From positions 37,021-101,020 of the IMG/VR virus record IMGVR_UViG_3300009506_000008: a stretch of DNA of 64,000 nt. One strand, given 5' to 3'. The DNA comes from a virus. This document shows positions 1 to 13,176 of this stretch, one piece after another (positions within the stretch are counted from its first letter, which is position 1; each line of letters begins with the position of its first letter). The notes under the pieces are model-generated. The model was not told the origin of the DNA and did no database searches. It was given only the letters and a program-made list of their open reading frames with translations. A program made the position numbers and the translations under genes.

Positions 1-8
1 ATCAAGTG

Positions 9-508: not shown

Positions 509-825
509 TATTCCACCTCCCTTATGTCCCAGAACTCGCATTTGATGTGATGTCCTAGTTGGATGGTCGCGCCGCACGCAAGGCAGGTTCCCTCTTCATC
601 GGCGCACAGGTTCGGGGCGTCCAACTCGTACACGGTCTTCCAAGTGCCGTCTCCCATGCGCTTGTCAACGCGGAGCCCCTTACTCATGTCTCCAGTCCTG
701 ACTACCGACACTCTGTAAGGCCCGTGATCGAGTTTCAAGTTGCTGTCGTGGCCTTGTGTTAGGGTCGGGAGCATCGTGATTGCATCGATCAAATGCCACG
801 GCCCAAGGTCTTGTATCTCTGTCAT
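508..825 (-). CDS. Hypothetical protein, C-terminal CxxC/HxxxC zinc finger
   Basis: ATGA overlap, SD GAGGAG; CLACG...HHIKC. Confidence 0.75.
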   Translation of the reverse strand: MTEIQDLGPWHLIDAITMLPTLTQGHDSNLKLDHGPYRVSVVRTGDMSKGLRVDKRMGDGTWKTVYELDAPNLCADEEGTCLACGATIQLGHHIKCEFWDIREVE

Positions 826-1427
826 GGCAGCAACTCCTCGGGCACCGTGTCTGGCCTCACGATAGCGATCCACCTCGAACCGATGATCTGGTCGTACGTT
901 GCCGAGATGAGGACTTGTGTTTCATCGTCTCTGAAGATCGCCTTGAAGTGGATATCGGACAGGTGAAACATCATCAGCTTAATACGGTTGAGGACTTCCT
1001 CCGTGGGCTGGACGTACCCGTAGCAGTAACCACGGCCCCCGGAGATCGAGATCATGGGACCGATCCGCACCACACGCCCCTCCGAGTTCTTCCACAAATG
1101 AGCTGGAAGCGTTTCCTCTTTCCCCGAGCGGATCCACTTGGTGAAGACTTCCTTGAAGTCGGTGTACTGAGGAAACAGGAGGGGACGATCACCGAAGAGT
1201 TCGATGTCGCCGTTTTCCAACCCGATGCCGTAGGTCAAGGCTACTCTATCCCACTCGTCATCGTCGCCGCTGGGTACGATGAACCACTTGATCCTGTGAC
1301 CTTCTGGCATGTTGTCTGCTGGAGTGACACACAACTGATGTCCCTTGGGAATGAGTTTTGGTTCTCCTCCTTCCCAAGGCAGGCGTGTGTCGATGTCCCG
1401 AGTGGCCCTTCCGTAGAATCTATCCAT
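822..1427 (-). CDS. Hypothetical protein (201 aa)
   Basis: SD GAGGAGGAG; tiles operon. Confidence 0.8.
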   Translation of the reverse strand: MDRFYGRATRDIDTRLPWEGGEPKLIPKGHQLCVTPADNMPEGHRIKWFIVPSGDDDEWDRVALTYGIGLENGDIELFGDRPLLFPQYTDFKEVFTKWIRSGKEETLPAHLWKNSEGRVVRIGPMISISGGRGYCYGYVQPTEEVLNRIKLMMFHLSDIHFKAIFRDDETQVLISATYDQIIGSRWIAIVRPDTVPEELLP

Positions 1428-1647
1428 GCTTCTCCTCCTCTGAGGACACCTCTTGGCGGCGTTTCAACTGCTCGAAAGTTACTCCGCGAAGGGGTCCGTA
1501 GTCATGTCGCAATGGATTGTCTGGTTCGAGGAATCCGGTCTGGAGAACTGTTCGGCTCTGGCGGAGTCTCGCCACGTACTTGCTTCTGGCGTACCTGGAG
1601 ACACGTTCCGCTTTCTTCGAGAGCCAGTACCAGAATGTTTCTCTCAT
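1420..1647 (-). CDS. Basic hypothetical protein (75 aa)
   Basis: ATGA overlap, SD GGAGG. Confidence 0.65.
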   Translation of the reverse strand: MRETFWYWLSKKAERVSRYARSKYVARLRQSRTVLQTGFLEPDNPLRHDYGPLRGVTFEQLKRRQEVSSEEEKHG

Positions 1648-2045
1648 TCCAAACCCTCCTCCAACTTCGACGTTCTCGGGTTTCTCCCCAGCCAAGCCGT
1701 AGCCGCCACGACCCAGGCTCCGCTGAAGTTCTTCTGGATGTACTCCCAGACATCGTGTTTGGAAATGTCCGGGTTGGCAGAGTGTGTCCAGTGGATGCGG
1801 TCACCGGCGAGGTCGCGAATGAAAGCGGCGTCGTTGATGAGCTCGTCGGCGTACCATCCAGACAGGTCCGTCACTCCGTCACGGCGGGCCTTGCGAAGTT
1901 TCTTGGTAGCTTCCTCGGAGAATGCGTGTCCATCCTCAAGGAACTCCTCAGCCTCCGTGGAGGCTGTCTCAAAGGCAGCGTCTTCCAATGCTCCTTTGAT
2001 GGCGTGTGCAACGTCTTCCGCTGACTTATACTTCTCACCGTACAT
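1644..2045 (-). CDS. Hypothetical helical protein (133 aa)
   Basis: SD AGGAG preceded by the repeated hairpin element. Confidence 0.8.
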   Translation of the reverse strand: MYGEKYKSAEDVAHAIKGALEDAAFETASTEAEEFLEDGHAFSEEATKKLRKARRDGVTDLSGWYADELINDAAFIRDLAGDRIHWTHSANPDISKHDVWEYIQKNFSGAWVVAATAWLGRNPRTSKLEEGLE

Positions 2046-2144
2046 GGACCTACTCCTTTCTCCCTGCTTCAGCAGGGCTGTGGGGTTGAACATCCTATGC
2101 TGCCCCCCTCCTGAGAGGGGGACAGGAAGAAGGCTCAACCAGAA

Positions 2145-2819
2145 CTACTTGTCTTTCCAGAGCACCCGAGCTTCGACCGGCACCACCCTCATTTCTGTAG
2201 GGAACAGGCGGATCTGACCCGTCGCGAGAAGCACTCCCTTGGAAGTGTTGACTCCCAACATCTGACGCTTCTTGATGGTAACGTATACCTGGCACGTTTC
2301 CATCTTCATGTACACGTCATTTCTGTCGGGTTCCCGAAAGCACTGTCCATACTCGATGGAGTCGATGCACTCCGTCTCGATCAGTACATTTTCGCACTCG
2401 ACTTTCATTCTTTTGGTCTCCTCCCCCGAGGTGTTTATCCCATCTTCACAATGAGCGTCTCGGATTCGTTCGGTGTTGAGTTTGTTGACCGAGTCCATGT
2501 TGCAGAAATGAATCCCGCGAGGTCGGAACCCGGTGATCGTGTGACCGGATGCTGGCATGAGCATGTACACCTCAGGATCTACGGTGATCTTGCTCTCGCT
2601 GAGAGTCCTCCGGTAGTAGTCCTCCCAACTTGCCATAGAGGAGGGGCTCTGGCGTATGGCTCGTTCCATCTCCGTCGTTTCTCTGTGAAGATGATGTGCC
2701 AAGAGGTCTACCCAGTTGGGCTTGTCGATCCTGGACAGCATCTTGGCTGTGTTGGAGATGCGGCAGAAGCCATACCCCGTGAGCCTTTCGGCATCGAGGT
2801 TGGGGAATTTAGAGCTCAT
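2145..2819 (-). CDS. Hypothetical protein (224 aa) with probable internal in-frame start at 2408
   Basis: Start MSSKFP overlaps upstream gene; second strong SD GGGGGAGGAG before ATG 2408. Confidence 0.65.
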   Translation of the reverse strand: MSSKFPNLDAERLTGYGFCRISNTAKMLSRIDKPNWVDLLAHHLHRETTEMERAIRQSPSSMASWEDYYRRTLSESKITVDPEVYMLMPASGHTITGFRPRGIHFCNMDSVNKLNTERIRDAHCEDGINTSGEETKRMKVECENVLIETECIDSIEYGQCFREPDRNDVYMKMETCQVYVTIKKRQMLGVNTSKGVLLATGQIRLFPTEMRVVPVEARVLWKDK

Positions 2820-3204
2820 CGAACTCGCTCGCTGCCACTTCGTTGGTCTTGACGGTGTACTCAACCGACCGTTCGCAGTGGACGCACTTGACGTCGATGC
2901 TCGCCTCCAACCAGAAGAGGCGCTTGGCGTACCTGCCGCCGCCCTTCTCCATGACCTCGAACTCGGGTTCGTCCACTTCCTCGAACTCTTGGTCTTCCTC
3001 GTCGCAGTCAGGGCACTCGAAGTCCTCGCTGATGGAGAAGAACGCTTCCTTCTTCTCTTCAGCACAGCACTCCGACAACCTAGCCAGCCGGATCTCCGCT
3101 TCCAGGTGGCCCCCCTCTGTCTCGAAGTCCCAACTCTGAACTTCGGGTTCGCCCTCTTCCAGTGAGCAGAATGTGTTGCAGTTGTCACATCTCGTTGCGG
3201 CCAT
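2809..3204 (-). CDS. Highly acidic cysteine-containing protein
   Basis: 38 of 131 residues D/E; CDNC, CPDC, CVHC; SD GAGGAGG. Confidence 0.8.
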   Translation of the reverse strand: MAATRCDNCNTFCSLEEGEPEVQSWDFETEGGHLEAEIRLARLSECCAEEKKEAFFSISEDFECPDCDEEDQEFEEVDEPEFEVMEKGGGRYAKRLFWLEASIDVKCVHCERSVEYTVKTNEVAASEFDEL

Positions 3205-3216
3205 GTGTACCTCCTC

Positions 3217-3708
3217 TCAGGTTTGTGGCAAGACACCCTTGCCGTGGTAGGAATAGTAATCATCGGTGCCGTCGCCGATGATCACGTGGTCCAGCAACCG
3301 CAGTCCCAGCAGGAAGCACCCCTGTTGGAGGCGTGTCGTTAGCTGGTTGTCCTCGTCGCTGGGATCTGCATGACCGGTGGGATGGTTGTGGATCAGGACA
3401 ATGCCGTGTGCTTTGAGCACAAGAGCGGGACCAAACACTTCCCTGGGGTGTACCAAAGTTCCGCTCAGTGTCCCTACCGATGTGGTGTAGATGCCGATGG
3501 CATGGTTGCGTGCATCGACAGCAATGACAGCGAACTGTTCACATCCGTTGTCTTGGAGATGCTGCCGTGCGATCTGCACCACAACGCTACTGTGATTGAT
3601 CTTCGGTAAGGACAGGGCTGGCGGTCCCTCTCGTACCATGCTGATCCTGTACGAGGGAATTTCAATGTACTTCGGGGACATCTTTGGAGCCGGTTTTGTC
3701 CTCGCCAT
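3217..3708 (-). CDS. RadC-family JAB/MPN domain protein
   Basis: VGTLSGTLVHPREVF, HNHPTGHADPSDED (HxH-x10-D metal site) and LLDHVII motifs typical of RadC. Confidence 0.92.
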   Translation of the reverse strand: MARTKPAPKMSPKYIEIPSYRISMVREGPPALSLPKINHSSVVVQIARQHLQDNGCEQFAVIAVDARNHAIGIYTTSVGTLSGTLVHPREVFGPALVLKAHGIVLIHNHPTGHADPSDEDNQLTTRLQQGCFLLGLRLLDHVIIGDGTDDYYSYHGKGVLPQT

Positions 3709-4220
3709 CAGCGCATCGCCTCCTTGAGTTCGTTCGTTACCTTCCAGCACTTATGCCATCCCCATCCCAGTGCCGTCTGCATGTGGAATCGCAGTCGGGA
3801 CCGGATGGCGCCAGGTTTCTTCTCTTCCAGAAGCCCGACGACTTCCTCTGGTGCTTGAAGGATGATCCGAACGATCTCTTGAGCCTCCGCTGACAGGCTC
3901 GCTATCGTTTCCTTGAACGCTAGCTCTGCGAACGGGCTGGGCCCGTTCTCCCTGTCAGGGATCTCGTCCACCAACTCCTCGTGGAAGTTCCTCACGTGCT
4001 CGTTCTGTGCCCAGGTAATCAGCGCGTTCTCCACACACTTGTACACCCAGGTGTTGATCGAGGACTTCTCATCGTCGTAGCTGCCCAACGCTACGGCAAA
4101 GGCGACCAGGGCTTCCGACTCCAACTCGTCGTAGGGCAACCCTGTGGTTTGAGCAAAGGACCGAGCCCTGGCTCTAACCAATCCGATTAACTCTGGCGTC
4201 ACTACAATCCCTTCACTCAT
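3708..4220 (-). CDS. Phage sigma70-family (ECF-size) sigma factor-like protein
   Basis: Region 2-like ELESEALVAFAVALGSYDDEKSSINTWVYKCVENALI; region 4-like IASLSAEAQEIV followed by a degenerate HTH. Confidence 0.75.
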   Translation of the reverse strand: MSEGIVVTPELIGLVRARARSFAQTTGLPYDELESEALVAFAVALGSYDDEKSSINTWVYKCVENALITWAQNEHVRNFHEELVDEIPDRENGPSPFAELAFKETIASLSAEAQEIVRIILQAPEEVVGLLEEKKPGAIRSRLRFHMQTALGWGWHKCWKVTNELKEAMR

Positions 4221-4307
4221 GCTACTCCTCTCTCCCAGGTTCTCCTGGGCTGTGGGGTGAGACTTTATCAGAAGGGACGAAGTCACCCTCGTCCCCTCTG
4301 GAATGCC

Positions 4308-4520
4308 TCACATAAGGGTGAACTGCATTGTGCAATTGACACACGTGAAAGAACCGTTGCCGTTGGTAGGCGGGCAGTATCCATCCAACGGTTCGTCTAT
4401 GTCCTTGGAATACTTTCGAGCTAAGTGATTCTCGTGTTCGCAGTGAGGGCAGTGTGCGTATACCAATAACATCAACTTCTTTGGAGTCGGTTTCATTTGC
4501 CTCTTGCGTGTTCTCGCCAT
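4308..4520 (-). CDS. Zinc-ribbon protein with basic N-terminus
   Basis: CPHC...CVNC; MARTRKRQ; SD GGAGG. Confidence 0.7.
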   Translation of the reverse strand: MARTRKRQMKPTPKKLMLLVYAHCPHCEHENHLARKYSKDIDEPLDGYCPPTNGNGSFTCVNCTMQFTLM

Positions 4521-4831
4521 TTCCGCCTCCATTCTTTGTTGAATCCTACCCTGATACCCTCCTCGTACACGTCCCAGACATCATAGGGTTTGATCTGCTG
4601 TGCATCGTTGAGATCGCTGGCCGTGAACTCGAACGGGGAGAACTGGCGATTGTTCTCCTCGGCTTGCCAGCACCGGTGGAGGAAGACTACCTCCTGGTCG
4701 TTCTTGTCTTCCACGATCTTAATGTCAAGATCGTGGTCGTCAATCTCTTCCCCGATCTCAGGGAAGTCCTGGTAACTGGCAATGCTTTCTCCTCTGTCGC
4801 GGCCTTCTTCATAGATTTCTTTCTTGTTCAT
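4493..4831 (-). CDS. Acidic hypothetical protein (112 aa)
   Basis: SD GAGGAGG; ATGA overlap. Confidence 0.8.
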   Translation of the reverse strand: MNKKEIYEEGRDRGESIASYQDFPEIGEEIDDHDLDIKIVEDKNDQEVVFLHRCWQAEENNRQFSPFEFTASDLNDAQQIKPYDVWDVYEEGIRVGFNKEWRRKWREHARGK

Positions 4832-5031
4832 GTTCCCTCCTCATGCACCATCCTGTGCGTTTCCTCCTTGTGGAAGTTGAAGTACGAGAACAACCGGAAC
4901 CTGTCCCAACCCAGCGTGCGTCGGCAGTGTCTGATAGCACCGCGCACTGTCTTGAGTTGAAAGAGAACCCTGTGACTCGTTCCCAACGGTTCCTTTCCCT
5001 CATCGTTTGGAACGTAAGCGTAGAATCTCAT
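4828..5031 (-). CDS. Hypothetical protein (67 aa)
   Basis: SD GGGGAG; tiles operon. Confidence 0.7.
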   Translation of the reverse strand: MRFYAYVPNDEGKEPLGTSHRVLFQLKTVRGAIRHCRRTLGWDRFRLFSYFNFHKEETHRMVHEEGT

Positions 5032-5033
5032 CG

Positions 5034-5276
5034 TCACTCCCCCTTGTAACAATCATCGAGGTTGTGGTTGGCTCTGTCTGTCTCAGGGACAATCGTTACC
5101 AACCCCAAGTCCTCGATTTTGGTCGTTCCCGGCTCGAACCAATAGCCGGGACCGTCGTAGTCAGCGTCCAATGGATCGGTGCTGACCTCCATTGCTTGCA
5201 TGGCATCGACACTAACCAATCTAGTGACGAGTTCTCCATGCCTGTTAGTGCCTCTGAACATTCGGTACTTGTTCAT
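5034..5276 (-). CDS. Hypothetical protein (80 aa)
   Basis: SD AGGAGG preceded by the repeated hairpin element. Confidence 0.75.
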   Translation of the reverse strand: MNKYRMFRGTNRHGELVTRLVSVDAMQAMEVSTDPLDADYDGPGYWFEPGTTKIEDLGLVTIVPETDRANHNLDDCYKGE

Positions 5277-5367
5277 GCGATCCTCCTCTTGACTGTGCTC
5301 CTTCAGGAGCAGGTTGAGAAACCGAGGAAGGGGACGAGGTGACTCGTCCCCTCGACTGCGCCTCAAC

Positions 5368-5577
5368 CTACTTGCTGAGCTTCTTGATAAGCGAGAGTCG
5401 CTTGGTCTTGCAGCAATTCTCACCCCCATCCTCATATCCACAGGAGAGGCACACATCCATATTGGCCGGGTTGTTCGGACAGTTCTCCATGTGCCTGTGG
5501 AACTTGGTTGCGTCCTCCCGACCTCGTTCATCCTTGTCGCACTTGATTGTTTTGGAACAGAACACGCAGAACATCAT
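5368..5577 (-). CDS. Cys/His-rich zinc-finger microprotein
   Basis: CVFC, HMENC, CLSC, CC; SD GGAGG. Confidence 0.7.
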   Translation of the reverse strand: MMFCVFCSKTIKCDKDERGREDATKFHRHMENCPNNPANMDVCLSCGYEDGGENCCKTKRLSLIKKLSK

Positions 5578-6074
5578 CAGTCCTCCCACAGTATGCTGAG
5601 GTCTTTGCTGATGACCCCAAGCCGAACCTTGTCACCGCCGTGCTCCTTCATCCAGACAATGTAGTCCATGATCGACACACGGGACAGACCTTTCCACTCC
5701 GGGTCTGTCTTGTGCTTGAGAAGCAGAGCTTGGAAAGCACCCGTTACGCCGGCCAACAGGAAGTCGTCGGGCTCTGGACACTTGCTCTCTTGACCGTTCT
5801 CGATGAGGGGATCGGGCATTGGACAGTTGATTGCGAGTCTCCAATCTTCCTCGAACGCTGCCCTGGCGTCGATTACCGGGCACCCGACCATGTCAGGGTA
5901 GCTACCCTTCTCGCCGTTCTGGAGAGCTTTGACAAAGGATTCTGGAGAGTCATACCCGCTGATGCGGTATGTCGTACGTGGTCTGCCGTGCTGAGCTCCG
6001 TAAGAATCATCCTTGGAGCACTCTACTCCGTGCCCTCCCAACCCGAAGGACACCAAATGTGCAATGTCAGCCAT
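5577..6074 (-). CDS. Hypothetical protein (165 aa)
   Basis: SD AGGAG; tiles operon. Confidence 0.8.
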   Translation of the reverse strand: MADIAHLVSFGLGGHGVECSKDDSYGAQHGRPRTTYRISGYDSPESFVKALQNGEKGSYPDMVGCPVIDARAAFEEDWRLAINCPMPDPLIENGQESKCPEPDDFLLAGVTGAFQALLLKHKTDPEWKGLSRVSIMDYIVWMKEHGGDKVRLGVISKDLSILWED

Positions 6075-6408
6075 CTCCTACCTCCTTCTGAATAATGCTC
6101 CGCGTGATGCGAAGCAGTTCGTTGATCTCTTCCAGCATGGCATCGTCCATTCGCTCGGGATTTCTGTTGACGAGTTCCTCGATGCGCTTGGTAACATATT
6201 CCCAATGCCGTTGTGCCAGGAGTTTCCGGGCCGCGGCCTCCAAGATGTGGACGGGCTTGCCGAAGATACCAGCTTCGTCATAACTCCAGACGTAGTAGCT
6301 GGTACCTATCTGCAACTTCCTCAGCTTGTCCGCCCAATCTTCTGGGACCGCGTAGTCGTAATTCTTCAGGGAGGTGTAATTGTTGATGACGTCTAGGCTG
6401 GTTACCAT
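6067..6408 (-). CDS. Hypothetical protein (113 aa)
   Basis: SD AGGAGGAG directly after the WGAA hairpin. Confidence 0.8.
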   Translation of the reverse strand: MVTSLDVINNYTSLKNYDYAVPEDWADKLRKLQIGTSYYVWSYDEAGIFGKPVHILEAAARKLLAQRHWEYVTKRIEELVNRNPERMDDAMLEEINELLRITRSIIQKEVGDG

Positions 6409-6494
6409 GCGCTCCTCCTTGCCTCTTCAGAGGCACTAGGGGTTGTTGGCCGAACGATCTTACCCCCAACCGAAGTTGGGGGCAAGGGCGAGGG

Positions 6495-6701
6495 TCAACG
6501 ACCGTAGGCTCCGTTATCCAGCGCGAACTGGGCCGCTTCGCGGGAAGGATAGTAACCAGATTCTCTGGAGATCGGGCCGCACTGTTCGCACCAATACCCG
6601 ATGTAATAGGCATTGGAACGACAGATTTGGATCTTCAGCTTCGCGCCACACTCAATGCACGTTGTCTCCGTTCCACCTAGTGTTTCACCGGGCAGTGTCA
6701 A
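6495..6701 (-). CDS. Zinc-finger protein (TTG start)
   Basis: SD GAGGAGG 7 nt before TTG; CIECG...CEQCGPISRES. Confidence 0.7.
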   Translation of the reverse strand: MTLPGETLGGTETTCIECGAKLKIQICRSNAYYIGYWCEQCGPISRESGYYPSREAAQFALDNGAYGR

Positions 6702-6919
6702 TGTACTACCTCCTCGTTGATGTTGATGTTGATGGTGCCTTTCTTTCCTATCAGACTGATCTCGATCTCTGTGGCTCCGAGATCCGTGAGACGTGTGATG
6801 AGCTCGTCCACGCATTGCTCGAAGGGCTGTCCCAGAGTCGGATCGGCACCAGTGCGCCCGTCCTCGAAACACCAGACGAGCCTGTTGGTGTACGATTCTT
6901 GGTAGACGTAAACGTACAT
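6698..6919 (-). CDS. Hypothetical protein (73 aa)
   Basis: TGATG overlap with upstream stop. Confidence 0.7.
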   Translation of the reverse strand: MYVYVYQESYTNRLVWCFEDGRTGADPTLGQPFEQCVDELITRLTDLGATEIEISLIGKKGTINININEEVVH

Positions 6920-7116
6920 CAGTCCACCTTGATCCCGTCCCACAGATCCTCCTTGATCTGCTTTTCCACTGCGTCACACAGATAACGCAGTTGGGAGACG
7001 GCCTTCTTGATGAGTCCGACGTTGCCAGATCCCCAAGACATCTTGAGATCGGCGGCCATGTTCTCCGCTAGATCCAACAGTCCCGTGATTTGTTCTCGCT
7101 TCGTTGGCTGGACCAC
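6919..7116 (-). CDS. Small helical hypothetical protein (GTG start)
   Basis: SD AAGGAGG. Confidence 0.7.
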   Translation of the reverse strand: MVQPTKREQITGLLDLAENMAADLKMSWGSGNVGLIKKAVSQLRYLCDAVEKQIKEDLWDGIKVD

Positions 7117-7117
7117 T

Positions 7118-7273
7118 CTAGTCCTCCTTGGTTACGTTGGGAACCAGTGCGCACACAAACGCAAGCAATGCCAACAGTCCACCTCCCACGTAGTCGAAAG
7201 AGGAAGTGACATGCTTGTACGCACTGATTGCAATGAATGCTGACAGTGCATAGAACACGATCTTGAAGATCAT
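7118..7273 (-). CDS. Small membrane protein, two predicted TM helices
   Basis: MIFKIVFYALSAFIAISAY...GGGLLALLAFVCALV; ATGA overlap. Confidence 0.65.
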   Translation of the reverse strand: MIFKIVFYALSAFIAISAYKHVTSSFDYVGGGLLALLAFVCALVPNVTKED

Positions 7274-7407
7274 CTCGACACGATCCAGGTGTGCTGTATG
7301 CGCTGGCGCACCGTGCCGTTTGCTGTGCTGAAGACTACCAGGTAGTCCCCAGCCGTTCTGACCGCATACGCGATCTTCTGCATGATTCTCCAGGCTTTGT
7401 CCTTCAT
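7270..7407 (-). CDS. 45-aa hypothetical protein (below ORF-track cutoff)
   Basis: SD AGGAGGT; MKDKAWRIMQKIAYAVRTAGDYLVVFSTANGTVRQRIQHTWIVSR. Confidence 0.65.
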   Translation of the reverse strand: MKDKAWRIMQKIAYAVRTAGDYLVVFSTANGTVRQRIQHTWIVSR

Positions 7408-7585
7408 GATACACCTCCTCTTGGTTGTGCCCCTTCTGGGGCAGGGTGGAGAGAGATGGTCTCAATGCTGCCCTGGTTTTTCCCGGTTTAGGCGAACCGG
7501 CACCAGGGCAGGATGAAACTACCTCATCTCGTACCTCCTTTGGTTGCTTGTCGTTCTCAATGAACGCAGCCGAACTGCTTGAGCT

Positions 7586-7798
7586 CTACTTCTTCTTGCG
7601 GTTGACGTTGAGGGAGACGATCACGTCGGCGTGACCGGGAACCGCCGCGAAGCCCGAGGTGGTCGCGATCATGTGCGTCTTCCCAGACTTGGTGGGACCG
7701 TTGTCCTGGGACAGGTCGAACTCCAGGGTGAGCTTGTTGCCGTCCACGGTAGCGACGACGTTGGTTCCCAGCTCGGTGGTGTCTTTTGCGCGTGCCAT
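7586..7798 (-). CDS. Small beta-rich basic protein, possible nucleic-acid binder
   Basis: GNKLTLEFDL..GPTKSGKT.MIATTSG pattern; strongly C/G-ending codons; flanked by hairpins. Confidence 0.8.
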   Translation of the reverse strand: MARAKDTTELGTNVVATVDGNKLTLEFDLSQDNGPTKSGKTHMIATTSGFAAVPGHADVIVSLNVNRKKK

Positions 7799-7858
7799 GG
7801 TAGATCCTTTCTGGGCATCAGCCCTTGTTTTGGGGCAACGTTGCCCCGGTTGGTGGAA

Positions 7859-8119
7859 CTAGCCTTTGAAGCCGAACTCTTTCTTGAGAGCCGCAAGGAC
7901 GGCGGGTTTCATGACGGTCTTCCACTCCTGGTAAATCTTGTACCCGGAGCGTTCAGCGAACACGTCCTCCGCGCTGATGTTTGCACGAAGAAAGCTCTCC
8001 AGGTCCTTGTGAGGCTCGGCCAATTCGATGATCTCTTTGATCTCCAGGCACTCGTAAAGCGAAGTGCAAGGACCAAAGCAATCCTTGACCTTCAGCGCCG
8101 TCTGTTCCGTCATGTCCAT
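7859..8119 (-). CDS. Hypothetical protein (86 aa)
   Basis: TGATG overlap, SD GGAGG. Confidence 0.75.
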   Translation of the reverse strand: MDMTEQTALKVKDCFGPCTSLYECLEIKEIIELAEPHKDLESFLRANISAEDVFAERSGYKIYQEWKTVMKPAVLAALKKEFGFKG

Positions 8120-8499
8120 CAGTCTTCCTCCGCTTTGGAGCCCCGCTGCTTGGCTCGTTCTGCCCTGGTCTCCCGTGCTCGGGCGATGAGTTCCATCATC
8201 TTCTGGAGGAGTTCCCCGCCATCTTCGGCAGACATCTCCAGCAGAACACAGTTGAGATTGAGTCCGTAGTACAGCTCATGTCCCAACTCGGCGGTCATCT
8301 TGCACACGCGACCGACCATGTCATCGAGTCCAGCAGGAATCGGGAGCTCCAACGTCTTCGTTTCCGCCAGAGCGATGTTCCGTTCTGTACCACATGCGCC
8401 CGATCCGTACTGGTGAGGGCAGCGCATGATACGAACGTTTACCCAACGCTTGCATTTTGGACACTTCCACAAGTCTACCTTTGTGGGCCTTCCCATCAT
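8119..8499 (-). CDS. Zinc-finger protein with helical C-terminus
   Basis: WKCPKC...RCP...CGT; SD AAGGAGG. Confidence 0.75.
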   Translation of the reverse strand: MMGRPTKVDLWKCPKCKRWVNVRIMRCPHQYGSGACGTERNIALAETKTLELPIPAGLDDMVGRVCKMTAELGHELYYGLNLNCVLLEMSAEDGGELLQKMMELIARARETRAERAKQRGSKAEED

Positions 8500-8513
8500 T
8501 ATACTGCCCTCCT

Positions 8514-8669
8514 TTACTTGGCAGAGATACAGACTCTTTCCCCATCCGGCGAGGTCAGAATCATGTACTCTCCCTGTTGGAACGAGCAGGCGCGCTCGTT
8601 CTTTGTGGGTGTCGTCGCGCATCCTGCCAACAACAGGACGAACGCCAACGCGCTAATCATCGTTCGCAT
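8514..8669 (-). CDS. Small lipoprotein (51 aa; not in ORF track)
   Basis: MRTMISALAFVLLLAGC signal with lipobox LAGC; SD GGAGGT; two further Cys. Confidence 0.8.
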   Translation of the reverse strand: MRTMISALAFVLLLAGCATTPTKNERACSFQQGEYMILTSPDGERVCISAK

Positions 8670-8751
8670 AGGACTCACCTCCATTCTCCTACGGGTTGCG
8701 GGTTGAAGTACCGCAGAGAGGCGCGACCAAAGTCGTGCCCCTCGACGATGT

Positions 8752-9036
8752 TCAACCGAGCTGGCTTTCCAACACAGACTTGAGGATGTGGGACGTTCCG
8801 GTCAATTCCTCCGTGGACAATCCCTCGGACATTACCAACTCCAGCTTGTCGAGTTCCAGGATGCAATCGTCCAGGCTATACCTCCCGCAGTTCAACGCCG
8901 CGAGGAAGTTCCTGAAGGTGTTCACAATCTGCGCCGGTGTCATGGATATCTTCTCCACAGGATTCTCCACAGGGCACTGTTCAAACTCGGTGCCGCACAG
9001 TGAAGCGTTCGCATTCGGACAGTTTTCACAGAGCAT
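8752..9036 (-). CDS. Hypothetical protein, N-terminal Cys cluster
   Basis: CENC...LC...QC; SD AGGAGG. Confidence 0.75.
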   Translation of the reverse strand: MLCENCPNANASLCGTEFEQCPVENPVEKISMTPAQIVNTFRNFLAALNCGRYSLDDCILELDKLELVMSEGLSTEELTGTSHILKSVLESQLG

Positions 9037-9045
9037 TGGTACCTC

Positions 9046-9243
9046 CTAGATGCGTGTCAATGTTGGTCTAGGCCAAGCGGTTGGACGCCACTCGTACAGG
9101 TCACCGTCCTTGGTTAAGATATGCCAAGTTCCCATGTGAGGACCATTGTACTCGACAACCTCCATGCAGGACTTGTCCAGCATCTTGAACAAAATGTGTG
9201 AGTACAAACTGCCCTCCAAGTTCCGCATGTTCTTTGCTGCCAT
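9046..9243 (-). CDS. Hypothetical protein (65 aa)
   Basis: SD GGAGGAG. Confidence 0.75.
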   Translation of the reverse strand: MAAKNMRNLEGSLYSHILFKMLDKSCMEVVEYNGPHMGTWHILTKDGDLYEWRPTAWPRPTLTRI

Positions 9244-9254
9244 TCCACTCCTCC

Positions 9255-9440
9255 CTACCGGCTGACGTGGATTCCCCCAGGGGTAACCCAGTCGGCCTTG
9301 TTGTAGGCCAGCGCGAAGTCGCTTTGGACGTCTCGGAAGCAGATGAAGTAGTTCCAGCCCTGCTTCGCCAACATCGCTATGGCCCGCTTGCGGTCAGCCG
9401 CGTTTGCGTAGCCTCTGGTGTGTTCAATGATGCGCTTCAT
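9255..9440 (-). CDS. Hypothetical protein (61 aa)
   Basis: SD GAGG. Confidence 0.7.
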   Translation of the reverse strand: MKRIIEHTRGYANAADRKRAIAMLAKQGWNYFICFRDVQSDFALAYNKADWVTPGGIHVSR

Positions 9441-9442
9441 CT

Positions 9443-9646
9443 CTACCTCTTCTTTGACGACGTTACGTGAACTGTAACGTCTCCTCGGTGGTCGATGATG
9501 TCCTTCATTGCCTCTTTGGAGATTTCGTCCCCTGGCAACCACTCGATGCTGTTCGTGATCTTGGTGACCACGTACACAATCTTGGTCGGCTGGGGAATGT
9601 GGCGCTCGTGCGCCTCCACATGGAGAGTGACCGGCTTGTGCCTCAC
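9443..9646 (-). CDS. Hypothetical protein (GTG start)
   Basis: SD AGGAGG; GTGA overlap. Confidence 0.65.
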   Translation of the reverse strand: MRHKPVTLHVEAHERHIPQPTKIVYVVTKITNSIEWLPGDEISKEAMKDIIDHRGDVTVHVTSSKKR

Positions 9647-9810
9647 TTTTTCCTCCTGTTGAACCACTCCCCGCACTGGTTACACTTTCTGACAGTGTCG
9701 GACAGTGGTTTCACGTTGCGGGACTTGCACTTGGGGCACTGACCCCACCCCGTGTCAACTCCCTTGTTGTAGTGGACTCCTGCACGCTCGAAATTGGTCG
9801 AAAACGGCAT
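9643..9810 (-). CDS. Zinc-ribbon microprotein
   Basis: CPKC...CNQCG; SD GAGGAGG. Confidence 0.75.
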   Translation of the reverse strand: MPFSTNFERAGVHYNKGVDTGWGQCPKCKSRNVKPLSDTVRKCNQCGEWFNRRKK

Positions 9811-9882
9811 TTCTTGATCCTCCTCTGCTAGGGTTGACTGCCTGGGCCTGCCCTCGTCCAGAGACAAGGACAGGAACAGAGG

Positions 9883-10095
9883 TCAACGAGAGTGGTCGAG
9901 AGGAACCGGGACCATTGCCGATCCCAGCCAGTACAGGTAGCAGTTCAGCCCGTGTTGGGCAATAATGGCCTCGATCACCTTTTTGGCGCTCTTGGACGAC
10001 GTCGAACGGTGAATCGTGGCAAGGGCACGAGCCTTGCTGGCATCATCCGGCATGGACAACGCCGTTCTGATTCGGGACGGGATGGTTTCGGCCAT
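9883..10095 (-). CDS. Hypothetical protein (70 aa)
   Basis: TAATG overlap, SD AGGAG. Confidence 0.65.
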   Translation of the reverse strand: MAETIPSRIRTALSMPDDASKARALATIHRSTSSKSAKKVIEAIIAQHGLNCYLYWLGSAMVPVPLDHSR

Positions 10096-10262
10096 TACTT
10101 CACTCCTTGAACTGAGAGTTTGCACTTCTCACAGACCAGTTTCCGGGGATCGCTTGGAACGCCCTTTGCGGGATTCCAAACCATCACCTGTCGAGAGTCT
10201 CCAAAGGCCCATCCGCATTCAGTTGTACCCTTACCGTTTACGAGGTGAATTTTGTGCTTCAT
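10095..10262 (-). CDS. Zinc-finger microprotein (H..C..CxxC)
   Basis: KIHL...ECG...CEKC; SD GAGGAGG. Confidence 0.7.
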   Translation of the reverse strand: MKHKIHLVNGKGTTECGWAFGDSRQVMVWNPAKGVPSDPRKLVCEKCKLSVQGVK

Positions 10263-10369
10263 TAGAATCCTCCTCTCAGGGACAGCTGGTTCATGACGGG
10301 AGCCAAGTAGTACGCGGCCCCAACAGCGAGTGCTCCGAGCCAACCGATTGCCAGCCATACGACATTCAT
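10262..10369 (-). CDS. 35-aa single-TM peptide
   Basis: MNVVWLAIGWLGALAVGAAYYL; SD AAGGAGGT after the WGAA hairpin. Confidence 0.6.
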   Translation of the reverse strand: MNVVWLAIGWLGALAVGAAYYLAPVMNQLSLRGGF

Positions 10370-10442
10370 TTGAACCTCCTTCTGTTGTACCGCTTCAGCG
10401 GTAGTTGGCGGGCACCGAACTGGTCGATGCCCTACGGATGAC

Positions 10443-10577
10443 CTAACCAACAGCTTCGTCGTATTCACGCCATGCTGCACAGTGTGAATCACATCCGGGG
10501 CAGCTATCGTGGTCGCAATCCATGCAGGGATCGTCAATCTCGACAATCGTACCATCCGCCATAGTCGTCTCTCGCAT
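10443..10577 (-). CDS. 44-aa Cys-rich acidic microprotein
   Basis: CMDC...CPGC...C; TGATG overlap. Confidence 0.6.
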   Translation of the reverse strand: MRETTMADGTIVEIDDPCMDCDHDSCPGCDSHCAAWREYDEAVG

Positions 10578-10870
10578 CACTTTTCCTTTCTCCGTCGGAT
10601 AACCTTGGCCCCGTTCGCCAAGGCTTTCTCTTTGGCCTTCTCCAAAGCATGGTCGGCAAACGCCTTTCCGAAGGGATTCATCTGGTCGTAGCCGATCAAT
10701 TGGTCGCGCTCCTCTGCGCGATCCGCTTTGGCGATCAAACCCCGCAACTGCTTGGCGTCGTAGGTATATGGGTGGTACCGCTTCTCTTTCTTGATTCGGG
10801 GTTTGATCGGACTCTGCATCACCGGGTCTCTGCCGTTCCTTGGAGACCCCACACCAAATCTCTTCGACAT
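10577..10870 (-). CDS. Basic hypothetical protein (97 aa)
   Basis: SD AAGGAGGT; K/R rich. Confidence 0.75.
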   Translation of the reverse strand: MSKRFGVGSPRNGRDPVMQSPIKPRIKKEKRYHPYTYDAKQLRGLIAKADRAEERDQLIGYDQMNPFGKAFADHALEKAKEKALANGAKVIRRRKEK

Positions 10871-10884
10871 TCTTGAACCTCCTT

Positions 10885-11390
10885 GCAGCAATTGAACAGA
10901 ACGGGATACAGCTGAATTTTTCCGGGTAGGAACGGACATTGGAAAAGTCCATCTGAATCCTGTTCTACTCTTGGTCGTATAGGGGAGAAGCGTCGCGCAC
11001 GTGAGCTGGTCGTCCGATCCTCGCGGGTACGGCTAACGTCACCCCCCACCTAGCCCGTTGACCCCGCCGCTCCGCTCCAGGTGGGTTGCACCTATCTTGG
11101 CAGAGCTCCAACCCCGTGCGGCCTAGCTTGAACAGATGGCGTCGGCGCGGTATTGGAGAGGTGGCCTGCGTGGACTTCCGATACTCTTGGTGGCCCGTAT
11201 CGGGCGCAGGCTCGTTGGGTTAGGAAGTGAGCATATTTCGCCCAAATCCCGCGTGCTGCGACTCCCGTTGTCAAAGACCGATCCTGCGGTTGACCCCCCC
11301 TGACAGGGCGCTCCCGTGGCCGGAAGCGGCCTGTCAGGGGAAGGGTCGGCCTGGGCGGCCGATCCTTCCTGGATCCCGACTTGCGCGGTA
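10885..11390 (-). ncRNA. ~500-nt highly structured intergenic/leader RNA (family unassigned)
   Basis: No credible ORF; series of nested stems (GCCTGCG..CGCAGGC, CCGATAC..GTATCGG, CTCCAA..TTGGAG, CCCACCT..AGGTGGG, AGAACAGGAT..ATCCCGTTCT). Confidence 0.5.
11267..11279 (-). promoter_or_regulatory. boxA-like antitermination element
   Basis: GGTCTTTGACAAC on the minus strand, 8 nt 3' of a long hairpin; resembles rrn boxA (E. coli TGCTCTTTAACA). Confidence 0.6.
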
Positions 11391-11392
11391 GG

Positions 11393-11731
11393 CTAACTGG
11401 CGCGGTATTCTCCCGCTTTTTCGGCCGCTTGCATGGTCGCCTGGTTGAAGCTGAGGCTACCGTCGGCCGCTTCGATAACGATGGAACCGAATCTTTTCGC
11501 GAGGTGGCGAAGGTGGCACTTCACGCGGCCGATGAGCGCCTTATGGGCTTCTTGTCCGTGGCCGCCACGGCCGCTGTTTTTCCTTTGCGCTTGTGGGTAC
11601 TCGCCACCGGCTTTGCCGATGTGGAGCTCATCGGCAATACCGCGAATGTCACGGCCGCCAAACAGGATAAGGGAATCAATCCTGGCCGCCTGGGAGTCTA
11701 CATTGTGACCGAGAAAGTTTTTCTGTGACAT
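11393..11731 (-). CDS. First gene of leftward operon, possible DNA-binding protein
   Basis: SD AGAAAGG after a TGAG-loop hairpin; IRGIADEL...RVKCHLRHL resembles a split HTH (weak). Confidence 0.7.
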   Translation of the reverse strand: MSQKNFLGHNVDSQAARIDSLILFGGRDIRGIADELHIGKAGGEYPQAQRKNSGRGGHGQEAHKALIGRVKCHLRHLAKRFGSIVIEAADGSLSFNQATMQAAEKAGEYRAS

Positions 11732-11960
11732 GGTGTTCTACCTTTCTGACCGCCTCAGCGGCCGTCGGTTTCCGCGAATCGGGCTGATCCGCGGGGTGGA
11801 ACTTTTTATTTTTTAGTTATGCGCGAAGTGTGCCGAAGAGATGAAATCGCGCTGAAAAACATTGTTTGTTTCAGTCGGATCATCCCGCAATCAGCCGGAA
11901 TCGCCCGGAAACAAAGGGAAAAATTATTTTTGCCTATGCTAAGATTTCCAACAAAAATCA

Positions 11961-11976
11961 CGGCACATCAATTGCA
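11961..11976 (+). promoter_or_regulatory. sigma54 (-24/-12)-type promoter motif
   Basis: CGGCACATCAATTGCA = GG-N10-GC with GGCAC and TTGC. Confidence 0.55.
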
Positions 11977-12094
11977 CAGCAAACGATGTTTTCATGAAAT
12001 ACTGCGCGAACACACACACCTCATGGACGCAGTTTGCTCTTACAAGTGTTACAAACCAGGGACTTTTCCGCGAGAATACAGGCTTTTTTGCACT

Positions 12095-12135
12095 GTGCGA
12101 AATCGCGCACCCCTACTGCGCAGAATCGCGCAGTA
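12095..12135. promoter_or_regulatory. Tandem palindromic operator/enhancer sites
   Basis: GTGCGAAATCGCGCAC and TACTGCGCAGAATCGCGCAGTA, centres 22 bp apart. Confidence 0.55.
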
Positions 12136-12750
12136 TTCCAAGCAAAGCATGATTCGCGGTACTAGACTGGACAGCCCATCGCTTATCTATTACATAAGGG
12201 AAAACGAGTGTCAGTTGACAAACGCCACCTTTGCAGAAACAAACATGACACTTTCAGGGGATCAAGAAAAGGGAAAACGATACCTGAACGGGATGGGCGG
12301 GAATGTATGCAAAGGAAGTGTCAGGTTTCAGAGTAAGGGAATAGGGGAAAAGGTTCCGGCCATCCATACATACCGGCGATCAACAAAGAGCACAATGAAA
12401 TCCCTACCAACTGAAGAGACAATTGAGACGATGACACGATCAGTTCCACACTACGCTGTCAGGGGATTGATCGGCCTATTGTTGACACGGCCGATGCTGG
12501 TAGGGGTGTCCGATACCCGACCAAGGGAGGCAGGGTAAGCCGTTTGGGCCCCCGTAGGTAGTATCATCAGTAGGCCCCTGGTTATGAAAACCTTGGTTTA
12601 GTAAAGGAATCAGGGACATGCTAAGGTTGATACATGATTATTGAAAGAGATTAAAGAACAAAGAGTGAGGTGCCGATAAAGCCTGAAAAGGTTTTCATCA
12701 ATGTAGGGGGCTGGTTAAGTTGACGTTGACTTTTGCACATTTTCGTTGAC

Positions 12751-12785
12751 GAATACTCATGAAGTATTTTTTATCATGAGTATTC
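12751..12785. repeat. Perfect 12-bp inverted repeat with 11-bp AT-rich spacer
   Basis: GAATACTCATGA-AGTATTTTTTA-TCATGAGTATTC. Confidence 0.85.
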
Positions 12786-12884
12786 CGAATCTCCCCCGGT
12801 AAAAAATCTTCAAGGGAACGAAATCACCCGTTACGTCCAAGCGGTTATAGGATTTTTGGTCTCTTCCAAGGAAGGAAGGTGTTT

Positions 12885-13034
12885 TTGCCTGAAAAAGAGG
12901 TGTTGATTCTTCATGGAGAAAGCATCAATGATATTTTGTGTGTGTCAAATGCCGATGACATGTCCATAGTGGTATTGAACGCTATAGTGATGTTGATATT
13001 GATACTGGTCATTGATTCGTGGAGGAGGAAATAG
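12885..13034 (+). CDS. Possible 49-aa single-TM protein (TTG start)
   Basis: Purine-rich GGAAGGAAGG upstream; ...MSIVVLNAIVMLILILVIDSWRRK. Confidence 0.35.
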   Translation: MPEKEVLILHGESINDILCVSNADDMSIVVLNAIVMLILILVIDSWRRK

Positions 13035-13176
13035 GTGGTCTTGAATTGGTTTTGGATAGAAAATATGTGGTTTTGAATTCTATGGAAGAGAAAAAAGTGG
13101 TTTACATGCGAGTGACATGAGGTGTACCCTTTGTGATGTGAAGGACAAAAGGTTGTTTTGAACGGAGGACGATATT

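Follow-up and report, generated by a model that had tools for sequence, protein, structure and literature searches.

Eight short hairpins, each with its 3′ end 0-8 nt ahead of a Shine-Dalgarno (SD) core, were found in an uncultured marine-sediment phage (101 kb), on the minus strand of its early operon. From their sequences they look like a shared recognition tag for the co-ordinated control of early protein synthesis, and the best reading, to which we would give somewhat less than even chances, is that of a loop-recognised translational operator tagging the early ribosome entry sites. Positions are those of the window (the whole 64,000-nucleotide stretch of phage DNA that was analysed) unless the genome is named. 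The preliminary description had listed seven 6-bp hairpins with a WGAN tetraloop and one 4-bp copy; all were recovered where it had placed them, and the spacing to the SD that it reported was confirmed in 8/8 copies. From hairpin 3′ end to start codon the distance was 11-20 nt.

The hairpins occupy eight of the ten untranslated gaps (at least 35 nt) of the ~11.7-kb early operon, and each remaining early gene overlaps the one upstream or directly adjoins it. Translational coupling cannot deliver ribosomes across the untranslated gaps; nearly every fresh ribosome start point in the operon is preceded by a WGAN hairpin. The first (unit A, 11748..11763, GGCCGC-UGAG-GCGGUC with one G-U pair, ΔG −8.5 kcal/mol) lies 3 nt upstream of AAAGG and 16 nt upstream of the ATG at 11731, the start of the first early gene (112 aa). 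Unit B (10388..10403, UACCGC-UGAA-GCGGUA, ΔG −7.5, pairing probability 0.72) is followed after 7 nt by AGAAGGAGG and then by ATG 10369 of a 35-aa membrane peptide. The 4-bp copy, unit C (7813..7824, GGGC-UGAU-GCCC, ΔG −6.5, probability 0.98), has AAGGA 3 nt downstream and precedes ATG 7798 of a 70-aa protein. Unit D (7428..7443, UGCCCC-AGAA-GGGGCA, ΔG −10.8, probability 0.89) is flanked by CCACCC on its 5′ side and by GAGGAGG 8 nt downstream, ahead of ATG 7407 (45 aa), and unit E (6420..6435, UGCCUC-UGAA-GAGGCA, ΔG −8.2, probability 0.97) directly adjoins AGGAGGAG before ATG 6408 (113 aa). Unit F (5296..5311, UGCUCC-UGAA-GGAGCA, ΔG −8.2) again has GAGGAGG 8 nt downstream, with ATG 5276 opening an 80-aa gene. 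The last two, unit G (4234..4249, CCCAGG-AGAA-CCUGGG) and unit H (2062..2077, CCCUGC-UGAA-GCAGGG), each with ΔG −9.6 and probability 1.00, sit between CCCCACAG and AGAGAGGAGUAG and between CCCCACAG and AGAAAGGAGUAG, respectively; they precede ATG 4220 of a 170-aa sigma-70-family protein (PF04542) and ATG 2045 of a 133-aa protein. We infer that the hairpins also fold in vivo. In a 200-nt equilibrium prediction those of units A and F are not the favoured fold: the pairing probability in context is just 0.22 for unit A, and for unit F, which is the minimum-energy structure in local context, it falls to 0.10 in long context because the 5′ arm can pair elsewhere.

Enrichment was determined against 1000 dinucleotide shuffles of the 10.1-kb early stretch, with the WGAN class (here and in the loop statistics) defined post hoc after inspection of the data: eight 6-bp WGAN hairpins were observed against 0.40 ± 0.65 expected (maximum 4 in 1000), in the comparison with shuffled sequence that the preliminary description had suggested. 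Seven were SD-adjacent, against 0.08 expected (shuffle maximum 2); the eighth 6-bp hairpin of this count (4766-4747) lies inside a coding region. Of the loops carried by 6-bp tetraloop hairpins on the minus strand of this stretch, UGAA was the most frequent. A whole-genome scan (4-7 bp stem, WGAN loop, SD, open frame) returned the same eight hairpins, which, with the exception of one weak 4-bp case, were the only ones beside a strong SD. In all it added four weak hits of 4-5 bp elsewhere, of which one was on the minus strand; these resemble chance matches. No SD-adjacent WGAN hairpin was found in the late arm. Middle-arm leaders behind TGTATAAT promoters likewise have hairpins beside the SD, but the loops of these are GGCUG and CCUG, and on this comparison the loop type is specific to the early gene class. 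All copies belong to a single transcription unit, in keeping with the regulon idea of the preliminary description.

Across the eight copies the loops are UGAA (four), AGAA (two), UGAG and UGAU; G2 and A3 are constant throughout. A 6-bp stem is present in 7/8 copies and a closing C-G pair in 7/8, and five of the six stem pairs vary on both sides. A further pair could be added in none of the eight (flanking letters C.C, G.A, C.A or A.A), for which the chance is ~0.02 by our own arithmetic. Compensatory variation with a fixed stem length and loop had been reported; the length and the constant G2 and A3 stood, but the 100% pairing and the compensation are in part a product of the way in which copies were selected. 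Evidence independent of this selection comes from the enrichment, from the position and from the contrast to nearby hairpins. The ten larger neighbours within the intergenic modules each have a loop of their own, and WGAN is not among these. Among tetraloops, WGAN was found in 8/8 short vs 0/7 larger hairpins (Fisher p ~1.6e-4, our arithmetic), a loop-constancy statistic that is weakened by shared flanks within the subfamilies D/E/F, G/H and A/B, since these perhaps reduce the eight copies to 3-4 independent lineages. The copies look like duplicated intergenic modules. A neutral loop is expected to drift faster than its stem, which needs paired changes. To our knowledge CUGAAG and CAGAAG are not counted among the extra-stable tetraloops, so stability alone leaves the choice of loop unexplained. 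The pattern argues that selection acts on loop identity, and the part of the earlier proposal that called for a protein-recognised operator is retained to this extent: the hairpin behaves as a recognised RNA element, with constrained loop and stem amid neighbours of varied loop.

The flanks described earlier as common to the copies at 4249 and 2077, CCCCACAG...AGA(A/G)AGGAGUAG (AGARAGGAGUAG), were verified, and ACA..AAGAGGAGG is common to units B, D and F. The 16-nt hairpin of units G and H separates ACCCCACAG from the SD. At a middle gene (genome 28722) and at a late gene (window ~30290) these two elements directly adjoin each other, and at three early genes in L017, a distant relative, they nearly do. 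By this comparison the short hairpin of units G and H has the character of an add-on, placed in insertion-like fashion between leader and SD. Relatives exist at 58-80% protein identity.

A different role for the hairpin, the main rival reading, which we consider somewhat less likely than the operator but still a serious alternative, is suggested by the larger helix (6-34 pairs) that lies 0-26 nt upstream of every copy. This helix would be cut by host RNase III or another endonuclease, leaving the short hairpin near a new 5′-monophosphate end, where it would shield the message from 5′-end-dependent decay (RNase E/RNase J type) and keep the SD clear; the loop would be read by the nuclease or a protecting protein, or reflect common descent. 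The upstream hairpins are simple in units A (11772..11794, 9 bp, loop AGCCC, with CCACCCC on the 5′ side), B (10410..10432, 9 bp, loop CCAGU) and C (7832..7847, 6 bp, loop ACGU). In 7/10 gaps they are composite helices with internal loops (20-34 pairs, 55-91 nt long), an architecture that is also that of T7 processing signals: in units D (7445..7535, 34 predicted pairs, core 7512-7469, loop CGCCUA), E (6445..6499, 20 pairs, loop UUCG), F (5309..5371, 24 pairs, loop UCAC, outer arms GGUUGAGG/UCUCAACC, touching the short hairpin), G (4257..4311, 21 pairs, loop GUGA) and H (2084..2140, 23 pairs, loop UCAG, outer arms GGUUGAGC/GUUCAACC), and in the gaps at 9833..9887 (22 pairs, loop UCUG, outer arms GUUGAC/GUCAAC) and 8701..8757 (23 pairs, loop UUUG, outer arms GGUUGAA/UUCAACC), all on the minus strand. 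A natural strain variant changes two letters of the 8701..8757 helix while keeping or improving its pairing (an A.C mismatch is repaired and a G-C becomes G-U; ΔG −34.3 to −35.5), which argues that the large helices are selected as RNA. Neither promoter-like sites nor U-tract terminators were found in the ten gaps, and the leader ahead of the first gene also carries a hairpin pair; T7 likewise has a processing site, R0.3, ahead of its first gene. A second, conserved hairpin ahead of the SD is not known from T7. Five RNase III processing signals punctuate its ~7-kb early precursor (PMC3867540), and irregular internal-loop helices similarly punctuate the long polycistronic early transcript here (ten gaps in ~11.7 kb), but the likeness concerns the large neighbouring helices rather than the short hairpin, and cleavage here is putative.

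Several observations weigh against such processing as the explanation of the short hairpin. For a cap that is purely structural, neither the loop nor the 6-bp stem length would have to be fixed, but both are constrained, in contrast to the freely varying helices next to them. The gaps at 9833..9887 and 8701..8757 have a large helix, yet a WGAN hairpin is missing ahead of the SD of the gene that starts at 9810 and ahead of the gene that starts at 8678, respectively. Most units have a single-stranded spacer of 6-8 nt between large helix and hairpin, and unit D a longer one, which is a long stretch for a 5′ cap. Deleting the hairpin or mutating its 5′ arm leaves the predicted SD accessibility nearly unchanged (mean ~0.60 against 0.53-0.56). 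A search of the phage genome revealed no encoded RNase III, dsRBD or Csy4-type nuclease. The yeast RNase III Rnt1p does read an [A/u]GNN tetraloop class by shape through its double-stranded-RNA-binding domain (PMC3867540), and 8/8 loops here fit (A/U)GNN. This enzyme is eukaryotic, however, and cuts 14-16 bp from the loop, whereas the stems here are 6 bp and non-extendable and the phage encodes no dsRBD; the parallel is a lead on loop shape only.

It is improbable that the hairpin lacks a separate function and is merely inherited and tolerated with a module (large helix, leader and SD) that is mobile or recombines and has been copied from gap to gap, comparable to the stem-loop cassettes of T4-type phages or REP-like elements. 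Such copying would agree with the flank subfamilies (G/H and B/D/F), with the GAGGGGACGAG core common to the large helices of units F and G, and with the analogous modules and repeated leader of L017. Nevertheless, the stems have turned over fully yet remain paired at the same length around an unchanged loop, the reverse of neutral decay, while the large-helix loops diverged in the same modules; the L017 modules, moreover, are without the hairpin, which is therefore not an obligatory part of the cassette.

Least probable of all, and to be given very little credence, is the boxB-like antitermination element of the preliminary description, in which an N-like phage protein on the nascent hairpin would make polymerase resist Rho or termination and pausing at the large helices: a small hairpin whose loop is purine-rich and contains GA, present in one long early operon only, a first copy in the operon leader ahead of all large helices, and basic N-termini in several early proteins (an arginine-rich phage binder being conceivable) recall lambda-family nut sites, but lambda/P22 boxB has a 5-bp stem, a GNRA-like pentaloop and an upstream boxA, occurs once per operon (a single nut site being enough in lambda) and is unrelated to the SD, and none of these features holds for the tetraloops with G at position 2 described here, which come in eight copies with a tight SD link that has no role in antitermination, without a boxA-like word upstream, beside large helices lacking U-tract terminators, and in a phage in which N-, Q- and Nun-like families were not found (Pfam for 20 early proteins, PHROGs for 10).

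The translational operator reading has partial precedents. In T4, the gp43 operator, a 16-18-nt hairpin in which the loop word UAAC is conserved, lies upstream of the ribosome-binding site and extends into it, and RegA acts as a repressor at the initiation regions of ~30 mRNAs of the early and middle classes (PMC3014915). The element here would join the conserved-loop small hairpin of the one to the many early initiation sites of the other. It differs in that the T4/RB69 gp43 operator is a single autoregulatory site and RegA sites are A+U-rich, unstructured and include the AUG, whereas here eight structured copies with a different loop end before the SD, and binding is putative; no RegA or gp43 homologue was detected. 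In Mu, Com is a very small zinc-finger protein. Its mom site, a short hairpin by the initiation region, is closed by a C-G pair and has in its loop a GA that the protein contacts (PMC6483171). The C-G closing pair and the GA in the loop recur here, and the early operon encodes several small Cys4 proteins. The Com site, in contrast, is a single hexaloop with the motif CC(N)2-3GAG, and Com acts by opening up a neighbouring structure in which the start codon is hidden; no such inhibitory structure is predicted here, and most SDs are open in predictions. A Com homologue was not found.

None of the three basic proteins put forward earlier as candidate binders gained support from family, relative or structure searches. 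The product of 7586-7798 is a member of an all-beta domain family that is widespread in viruses, and matched no solved structure, that of 10577-10870 had no relatives and a poor predicted model, and that of 4308-4520 had a sub-threshold zinc-ribbon match. Apart from RadC, the sigma factor and a weak match to a zinc ribbon, searches of Pfam with 20 early proteins and of PHROGs with 10 of them returned nothing.

As a translational operator, the eight hairpins would be copies of one cis-acting RNA element, added to ribosome-binding leaders at the first cistron after nearly every untranslated gap, where the ribosome must bind anew. A trans-acting factor, most likely a small phage-made protein but possibly a host protein, would read the (A/U)GA(N) tetraloop on its fixed-length stem. 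Since the element ends 0-8 nt from the SD, the bound factor would either block the 30S subunit, giving an en-bloc shut-off of early translation like that of T4 RegA, or help it, in the manner of Mu Com. The downstream early genes of each cluster would be reachable by coupling, and control of the first cistron would then amount to control of the entire coupled cluster.

The record (101,020 bp, with 144-bp direct terminal repeats and rated complete) belongs to a long-tailed phage whose large terminase (TerL), portal, major head protein and 2601-aa tape-measure protein are encoded on the plus strand from ~13.2 kb. The sequencing runs in which the phage is best represented were marine-sediment metagenomes. 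A minus-strand arm starts at window ~11.8 kb and ends at genome ~5.6 kb (plain coordinates below are those of the window, genome coordinates those of the whole record). The first ~11.7 kb of this arm (window 11.8 to ~0.1 kb) is an operon of ~45 small, mostly unannotated genes, the majority of which overlap or abut their neighbors; judged by its gene content and position, it is probably the early operon. Promoters and terminators were scanned, and a sigma-70-like promoter match was found at 11951-11923. At the start of the unit that follows the operon, near window 100 to −130, a large helix precedes a TGTATAAT extended −10. Ten untranslated gaps of at least 35 nt were counted within the operon, leaving out 7271-7118, 5031-4828 and 2819-2145 as genes missed by crude gene calling. 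Neither a −10-like element nor a U-tract terminator was detected in these gaps by the sigma-70 promoter and terminator scan. A search of 1-13500 against Rfam at E <= 1 returned no match, and thus neither a known cis-element nor a ribozyme, hammerhead or otherwise.

Other features were recorded in the control regions of both arms. Upstream of the early operon (~11770-12135 (−)), a GCGATT(T/C)-type word recurs ~6 times, in several cases within a small palindrome, and these copies are probably operator sites; a 239-aa plus-strand ORF at 11819-12538 is not protein-like in appearance. The divergent control region between the arms (window 12700-12790) contains a ~36-bp palindrome at 12751-12786 (GGAATACTCATGA...TCATGAGTATTC) adjoining three GTCAAC/TTGAC words. 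Between the first and second early genes, ~500 nt at 10885-11390 (−) have no ORF, dense predicted structure (including, at 11340-11297, a hairpin of 44 nt that looks perfect, −39 kcal/mol), no WGAN hairpin of the kind described below and no Rfam match at E <= 1. In the middle arm, four extended −10 promoters (TG(T/N)TATAAT; G000:C1, the whole record, ~36950, ~32930, ~28780 and ~13150 (−)) each lie within a hairpin-bearing gap, all outside the window or on its edge.

The preliminary description had listed eight short minus-strand hairpins with (A/U)GA(N) loops (WGAN hairpins) just before Shine-Dalgarno (SD) sequences, and all were present where it had placed them: units A (11748-11763), B (10388-10403), C (7813-7824, with a 4-bp stem), D (7428-7443), E (6420-6435), F (5296-5311), G (4234-4249, before a sigma-70-family gene) and H (2062-2077). 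Enrichment was assessed by using 1000 dinucleotide-preserving shuffles of the 10.1-kb early stretch. The stretch holds 8 six-bp WGAN hairpins where 0.40 +/- 0.65 were expected (maximum 4), and 7 of these 8 lie just before an SD-like word, with 0.08 expected; the remaining one (4766-4747) is inside a gene and is consistent with chance. The recurrence of the motif is confirmed and is far from chance. A whole-genome scan (stem of 4-7 bp, WGAN loop, SD and open frame) returned the eight units and four weak 4-5 bp cases elsewhere.

The 3′ end of the hairpin is 0-8 nt from the SD in all eight units. In 8 of the 10 gaps (all but 9882-9811 and 8751-8679) the SD of the downstream gene has a WGAN hairpin directly in front of it, so the marked cistron is the first to follow a gap, which ribosomes could not reach by termination and re-initiation. 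Predicted stabilities are moderate (−6.5 to −10.8 kcal/mol), and each hairpin is the predicted minimum-energy fold of its own local leader. Folding within 200 nt of context leaves six of the eight likely (pairing probability 0.72 for B and >= 0.89 for C, D, E, G and H), and competing folds are predicted for units A and F. Only near-identical strains were present in the sequencing runs, with no variant within any short hairpin, and no RNA run was among those listed for the phage.

Loop and stem length are nearly fixed among the copies. The loops are UGAA (four copies), AGAA (two), UGAG and UGAU, so that G2 and A3 are invariant in 8/8; the closing pair is C-G in 7/8, the stem is exactly 6 bp in 7/8 (4 bp in one), and the next letters beyond the stem are unable to pair in any unit, making the stems not extendable. 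Five of the six stem pairs differ among copies, with changes on both sides, although perfect pairing was part of choosing the copies and the count of compensated pairs is not independent evidence. Common flanks group the units into subfamilies (D/E/F, G/H and A/B), and the number of independent lineages is therefore nearer three or four than eight. The large helices of the same modules, taken as an internal control, have ten loops that are all different (AGCCC, CCAGU, UCUG, UUUG, ACGU, CGCCUA, UUCG, UCAC, GUGA and UCAG), none of them WGAN. Small pre-SD hairpins also occur in the middle-arm leaders behind TGTATAAT promoters, but with the loops GGCUG and CCUG, and no WGAN-type hairpin was found in late leaders. 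To our knowledge, the WGAN loops are not among the extra-stable GNRA or UNCG kinds, loops of which are present on the large helices (GUGA and UUCG). The loop is conserved and the stem varied, which is the reverse of the faster drift expected of an unconstrained loop, and the fixed loop and stem length argue for recognition rather than mere structure.

A larger helix precedes every WGAN hairpin. In 7 of the 10 gaps this is a composite helix of 20-34 predicted pairs, 55-91 nt long, often with outer arms GGUUGA.../...UCAACC around a GC-rich hairpin of 11-14 pairs; in the other three (units A, B and C) it is 6-9 bp. Large helix and WGAN hairpin are 0-8 nt apart in seven units; in D the spacer is 1-26 nt (26 when measured from the core helix). 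No U-tract follows the large helices. Just upstream of the unit D large helix, in a 178-nt gap, a strong SD (AAGGAGG) followed by a two-codon mini-ORF (AUG-AGG-UAG) was observed at 7519-7540 (−). A minor contig from the probable source run carries G>A at 8721 and 8723 (C>U in RNA); within the helix at 8757-8701 these changes turn an A.C mismatch into an A-U pair and a G-C pair into a G-U pair. This pairing-restoring variant gives small but direct support that the large helices matter as RNA.

The short hairpin has the character of an addition to an existing leader. In units G and H it lies exactly between ACCCCACAG and AGA(A/G)AGGAGUAG, and in two other genes the same leader word runs straight into the SD, one of them middle (genome 28722 (−), ...CCACCCCACAG-AGGAGG) and the other late (window ~30290 (+), CACCCCACAA-AGGAG). 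A C-rich leader word of the form (C)CACCCCAC(A/U)(G/A) was observed before the SD in genes of all three time classes (at 4250-4257 and 2078-2085 in early units G and H), and it may be a translational enhancer or other recognition word. The only distant relative whose DNA was read (L017) has the same divergent layout, with a TerL 58% identical and a 674-aa protein 35% identical. Its analogous early arm has large helices in the gaps and CCCCACUGGGAAAAGGAG before three genes (7577, 6391 and 3365 (−)), and no WGAN hairpin. Since the leader word abuts the SD elsewhere and L017 is without the hairpin, the 16-nt element looks inserted into an older C-rich leader and, as far as these sequences go, looks like a module specific to this lineage and operon.

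Searches for further relatives were carried out at the protein and DNA level. Homologs in a large protein collection were found for the sigma-like protein (73% identity, encoded on a 3.8-kb Logan contig, and 58%, on an ENA contig) and for a 70-aa protein at 7586-7798 (80%, on a 7.6-kb Logan contig). Searching with the sigma-like protein, as a single sequence and as an alignment, returned no relative in IMG/VR, JGI metagenomes or GTDB genomes, and the back-translated DNA pattern of its invariant stretch APEEVVGLL..PGAI was found in neither IMG/VR nor the metagenomes. GenBank phages yielded no relative by tblastn or blastn, and in IMG/VR the only matches to DNA patterns of the G/H-type and D/E/F-type units were by chance or in coding sequence. 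Across 80 TerL loci from IMG/VR (812 kb, <= 58% identical), there was no enrichment of the motif, and pre-SD tetraloops showed no WGAA preference. One 9.8-kb locus, the IMG/VR contig L063 with a related TerL, has four SD-adjacent tetraloop hairpins with a common loop CUGG, possibly a counterpart, in an unrelated phage, of the repeated hairpins described here.

The most likely interpretation is that the hairpins are a recognized RNA tag at early entry sites, that is, a translational operator family. Of the preliminary proposal of a protein-recognized, boxB-like operator, the tag at early ribosome entry sites with a constrained loop beside the SD was upheld and the boxB identity was not. In all units, a small hairpin with a sequence-constrained loop lies at or next to the ribosome-binding site, as in phage translational operators of the gp43, Com or coat-protein type. 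Each hairpin could be a cis-acting operator whose loop is read by a trans-acting factor controlling initiation at that entry site, the best-supported reading, which we hold tentatively, at somewhat below an even chance. A protein bound to a hairpin ending 0-8 nt from the SD would be within the 30S footprint, so repression is the simplest outcome, and blocking the first cistron would shut off every gene of a coupled cluster. Activation is also possible: with the 3′ arm occupied, the pyrimidine-rich 5′ arm could be left to pair with the SD. Such pairing is predicted to be possible in D, E, F and H only (−3.2 to −6.5 kcal/mol); an anti-SD switch by the 5′ arm was rejected as a general account because it does not extend to all units and needs the 3′ arm blocked. 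Precedents for an operator include the T4/RB69 gp43 operator and the RegA regulon (PMC3014915) and Mu Com (PMC6483171).

A more ambitious form of the operator reading, to which we give about the same, clearly less than even, chance as to the processing account below, is that a structured class tag at every independent early entry site lets a single factor switch the whole early translation programme. The 6-bp stem and (A/U)GA(N) loop would form the tag, an insertion separating the SD from a standard CCCCACAG leader; the factor would act through the first cistron of each coupled cluster, turning the early programme on or off, and would probably be found among the unannotated small early or middle proteins. 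We know of no structured-operator translational regulon in any phage.

The serious rival is that the transcript is processed at the large helices and that the short hairpin, left close to the new 5′ end, is a cap against 5′-end-dependent decay; this is less probable than a cis-acting operator and still deserves real weight. Large irregular helices serve as processing sites in the T7 early transcript (PMC3867540), and an irregular helix of at least ~20 bp with internal loops between cistrons, as in a T7-type RNase III signal, is predicted in 7 of the 10 gaps. The phage genome encodes no RNase III, dsRBD or Csy4-type nuclease, so any processing enzyme would be the host's. Processing with a cap accounts for the pairing of large and short hairpins, including the pair in the operon leader; by itself it gives no account of the fixed loop and fixed stem length, and it leaves the two gaps without a short hairpin unexplained. 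A 5′-terminal stabilizer (ompA type, or an RNase J block), a hairpin no more than a few nt from the start of the mRNA that acts through structure only, predicts a free loop; here loop and stem length are constrained. All eight loops fit the (A/U)GNN definition of Rnt1p substrates, a loop class read by shape by yeast RNase III (PMC3867540). Rnt1p cuts 14-16 bp from the loop, and the WGAN stems (6 bp, 4 in one, not extendable) are far too short for that; the fit is a lead on loop geometry only.

That the hairpins are neutral passengers of duplicated cassettes is improbable, being contradicted by the conservation pattern. Least probable, and very unlikely, are nut-type antitermination sites. A lambda-type boxB is a 5-bp stem with a GNRA-like pentaloop (GAAAA, GAAGA or GACAA), and in a lambda-type nut site, which occurs once near the operon start and acts on downstream terminators, a conserved boxA word precedes the hairpin by a few nt. 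The boxB-like or antitermination identity suggested in the preliminary description fails on every defining nut feature that could be tested: the loops are tetraloops whose second base is G, on 6-bp stems; the upstream letters (CCCCACAG, CCACCC, CCCCUAG, GCCAAC, AACCGAC or AAACAA) share no boxA-like word; and the sites number eight, all of them 0-8 nt upstream of an SD and in gaps without a U-tract terminator. Several early proteins have basic N-termini, and family searches for an N-like arginine-rich binder gave no match.

Further candidates were rejected: an SD "insulator" (predicted SD accessibility barely changes without the hairpin), an N4-type DNA-hairpin promoter (the large proteins have no virion RNA polymerase-like match, and loop and stem sizes differ), an ECF-type promoter within UCAACC (the distance from this word to the hairpin varies), a pseudoknot of the UGAA loop with an upstream UUCA (implausible on steric grounds, since every one of the four bases in the loop would be paired), anticodon-loop mimicry (the loops disagree among themselves) and the loop UGA as an in-frame stop (out of frame). 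Two SD-sequestering hairpins were also observed, with the SD in the 3′ arm: UCCUC-AGAG-GAGGA at 1433-1446 (−), inside the upstream gene and before the ATG at 1427, with a loop that fits WGAN, and CCUCC...GGAGG at ~21070-21095 (+), before a late gene. Both look like translational coupling or masking devices.

Support was gained for none of the three basic proteins first proposed as binders. Pfam (20 early proteins), PHROGs (10), Atlas, AlphaFold with Foldseek and a PDB profile search yielded no RNA-binding assignment. The 70-aa protein at 7586-7798 (−) belongs to a widespread, unnamed family of viral all-beta domains, with 478 representatives at E <= 0.001; the domain occurs singly or, at protein lengths of 300-400 aa, in 2-4 tandem copies. 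The model of the 70-aa protein is confident (pLDDT 90), and no solved structure was matched by sequence profile or Foldseek. The 97-aa basic protein (10577-10870) is an orphan with a poor model, and the 70-aa Cys4 protein (4308-4520) has a sub-threshold Elf1-type zinc-ribbon match only. The early operon also codes for several further small Cys4 proteins, for example at 9643-9810, 6495-6701 and 8119-8499, and, by analogy with Com, such proteins may be reasonable first candidate binders.

Taken together, the interpretation is partly supported, with a translational operator family most likely and a processing-linked 5′ hairpin as its serious rival. Given that the phage is uncultured and has no close sequenced relatives in the collections searched, this should be read as a hypothesis and not as an established system. 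Accounts of temporal control in phages deal mostly with transcription, and the phage translational controls known to us are single autoregulatory operators (gp43, gp32, Com and coat proteins) or an unstructured consensus (RegA). Under the processing rival, the operon would be a clear non-T7 case of a punctuated early transcript, with a two-hairpin module of processing helix and downstream cap. If the operator reading is true, the compact 16-nt RNA tag, and later its binder, could serve as an orthogonal translational control part, and a repeated structured operator, confined to points of fresh ribosome binding, would govern a tightly coupled operon of ~45 genes through ~10 entry points.
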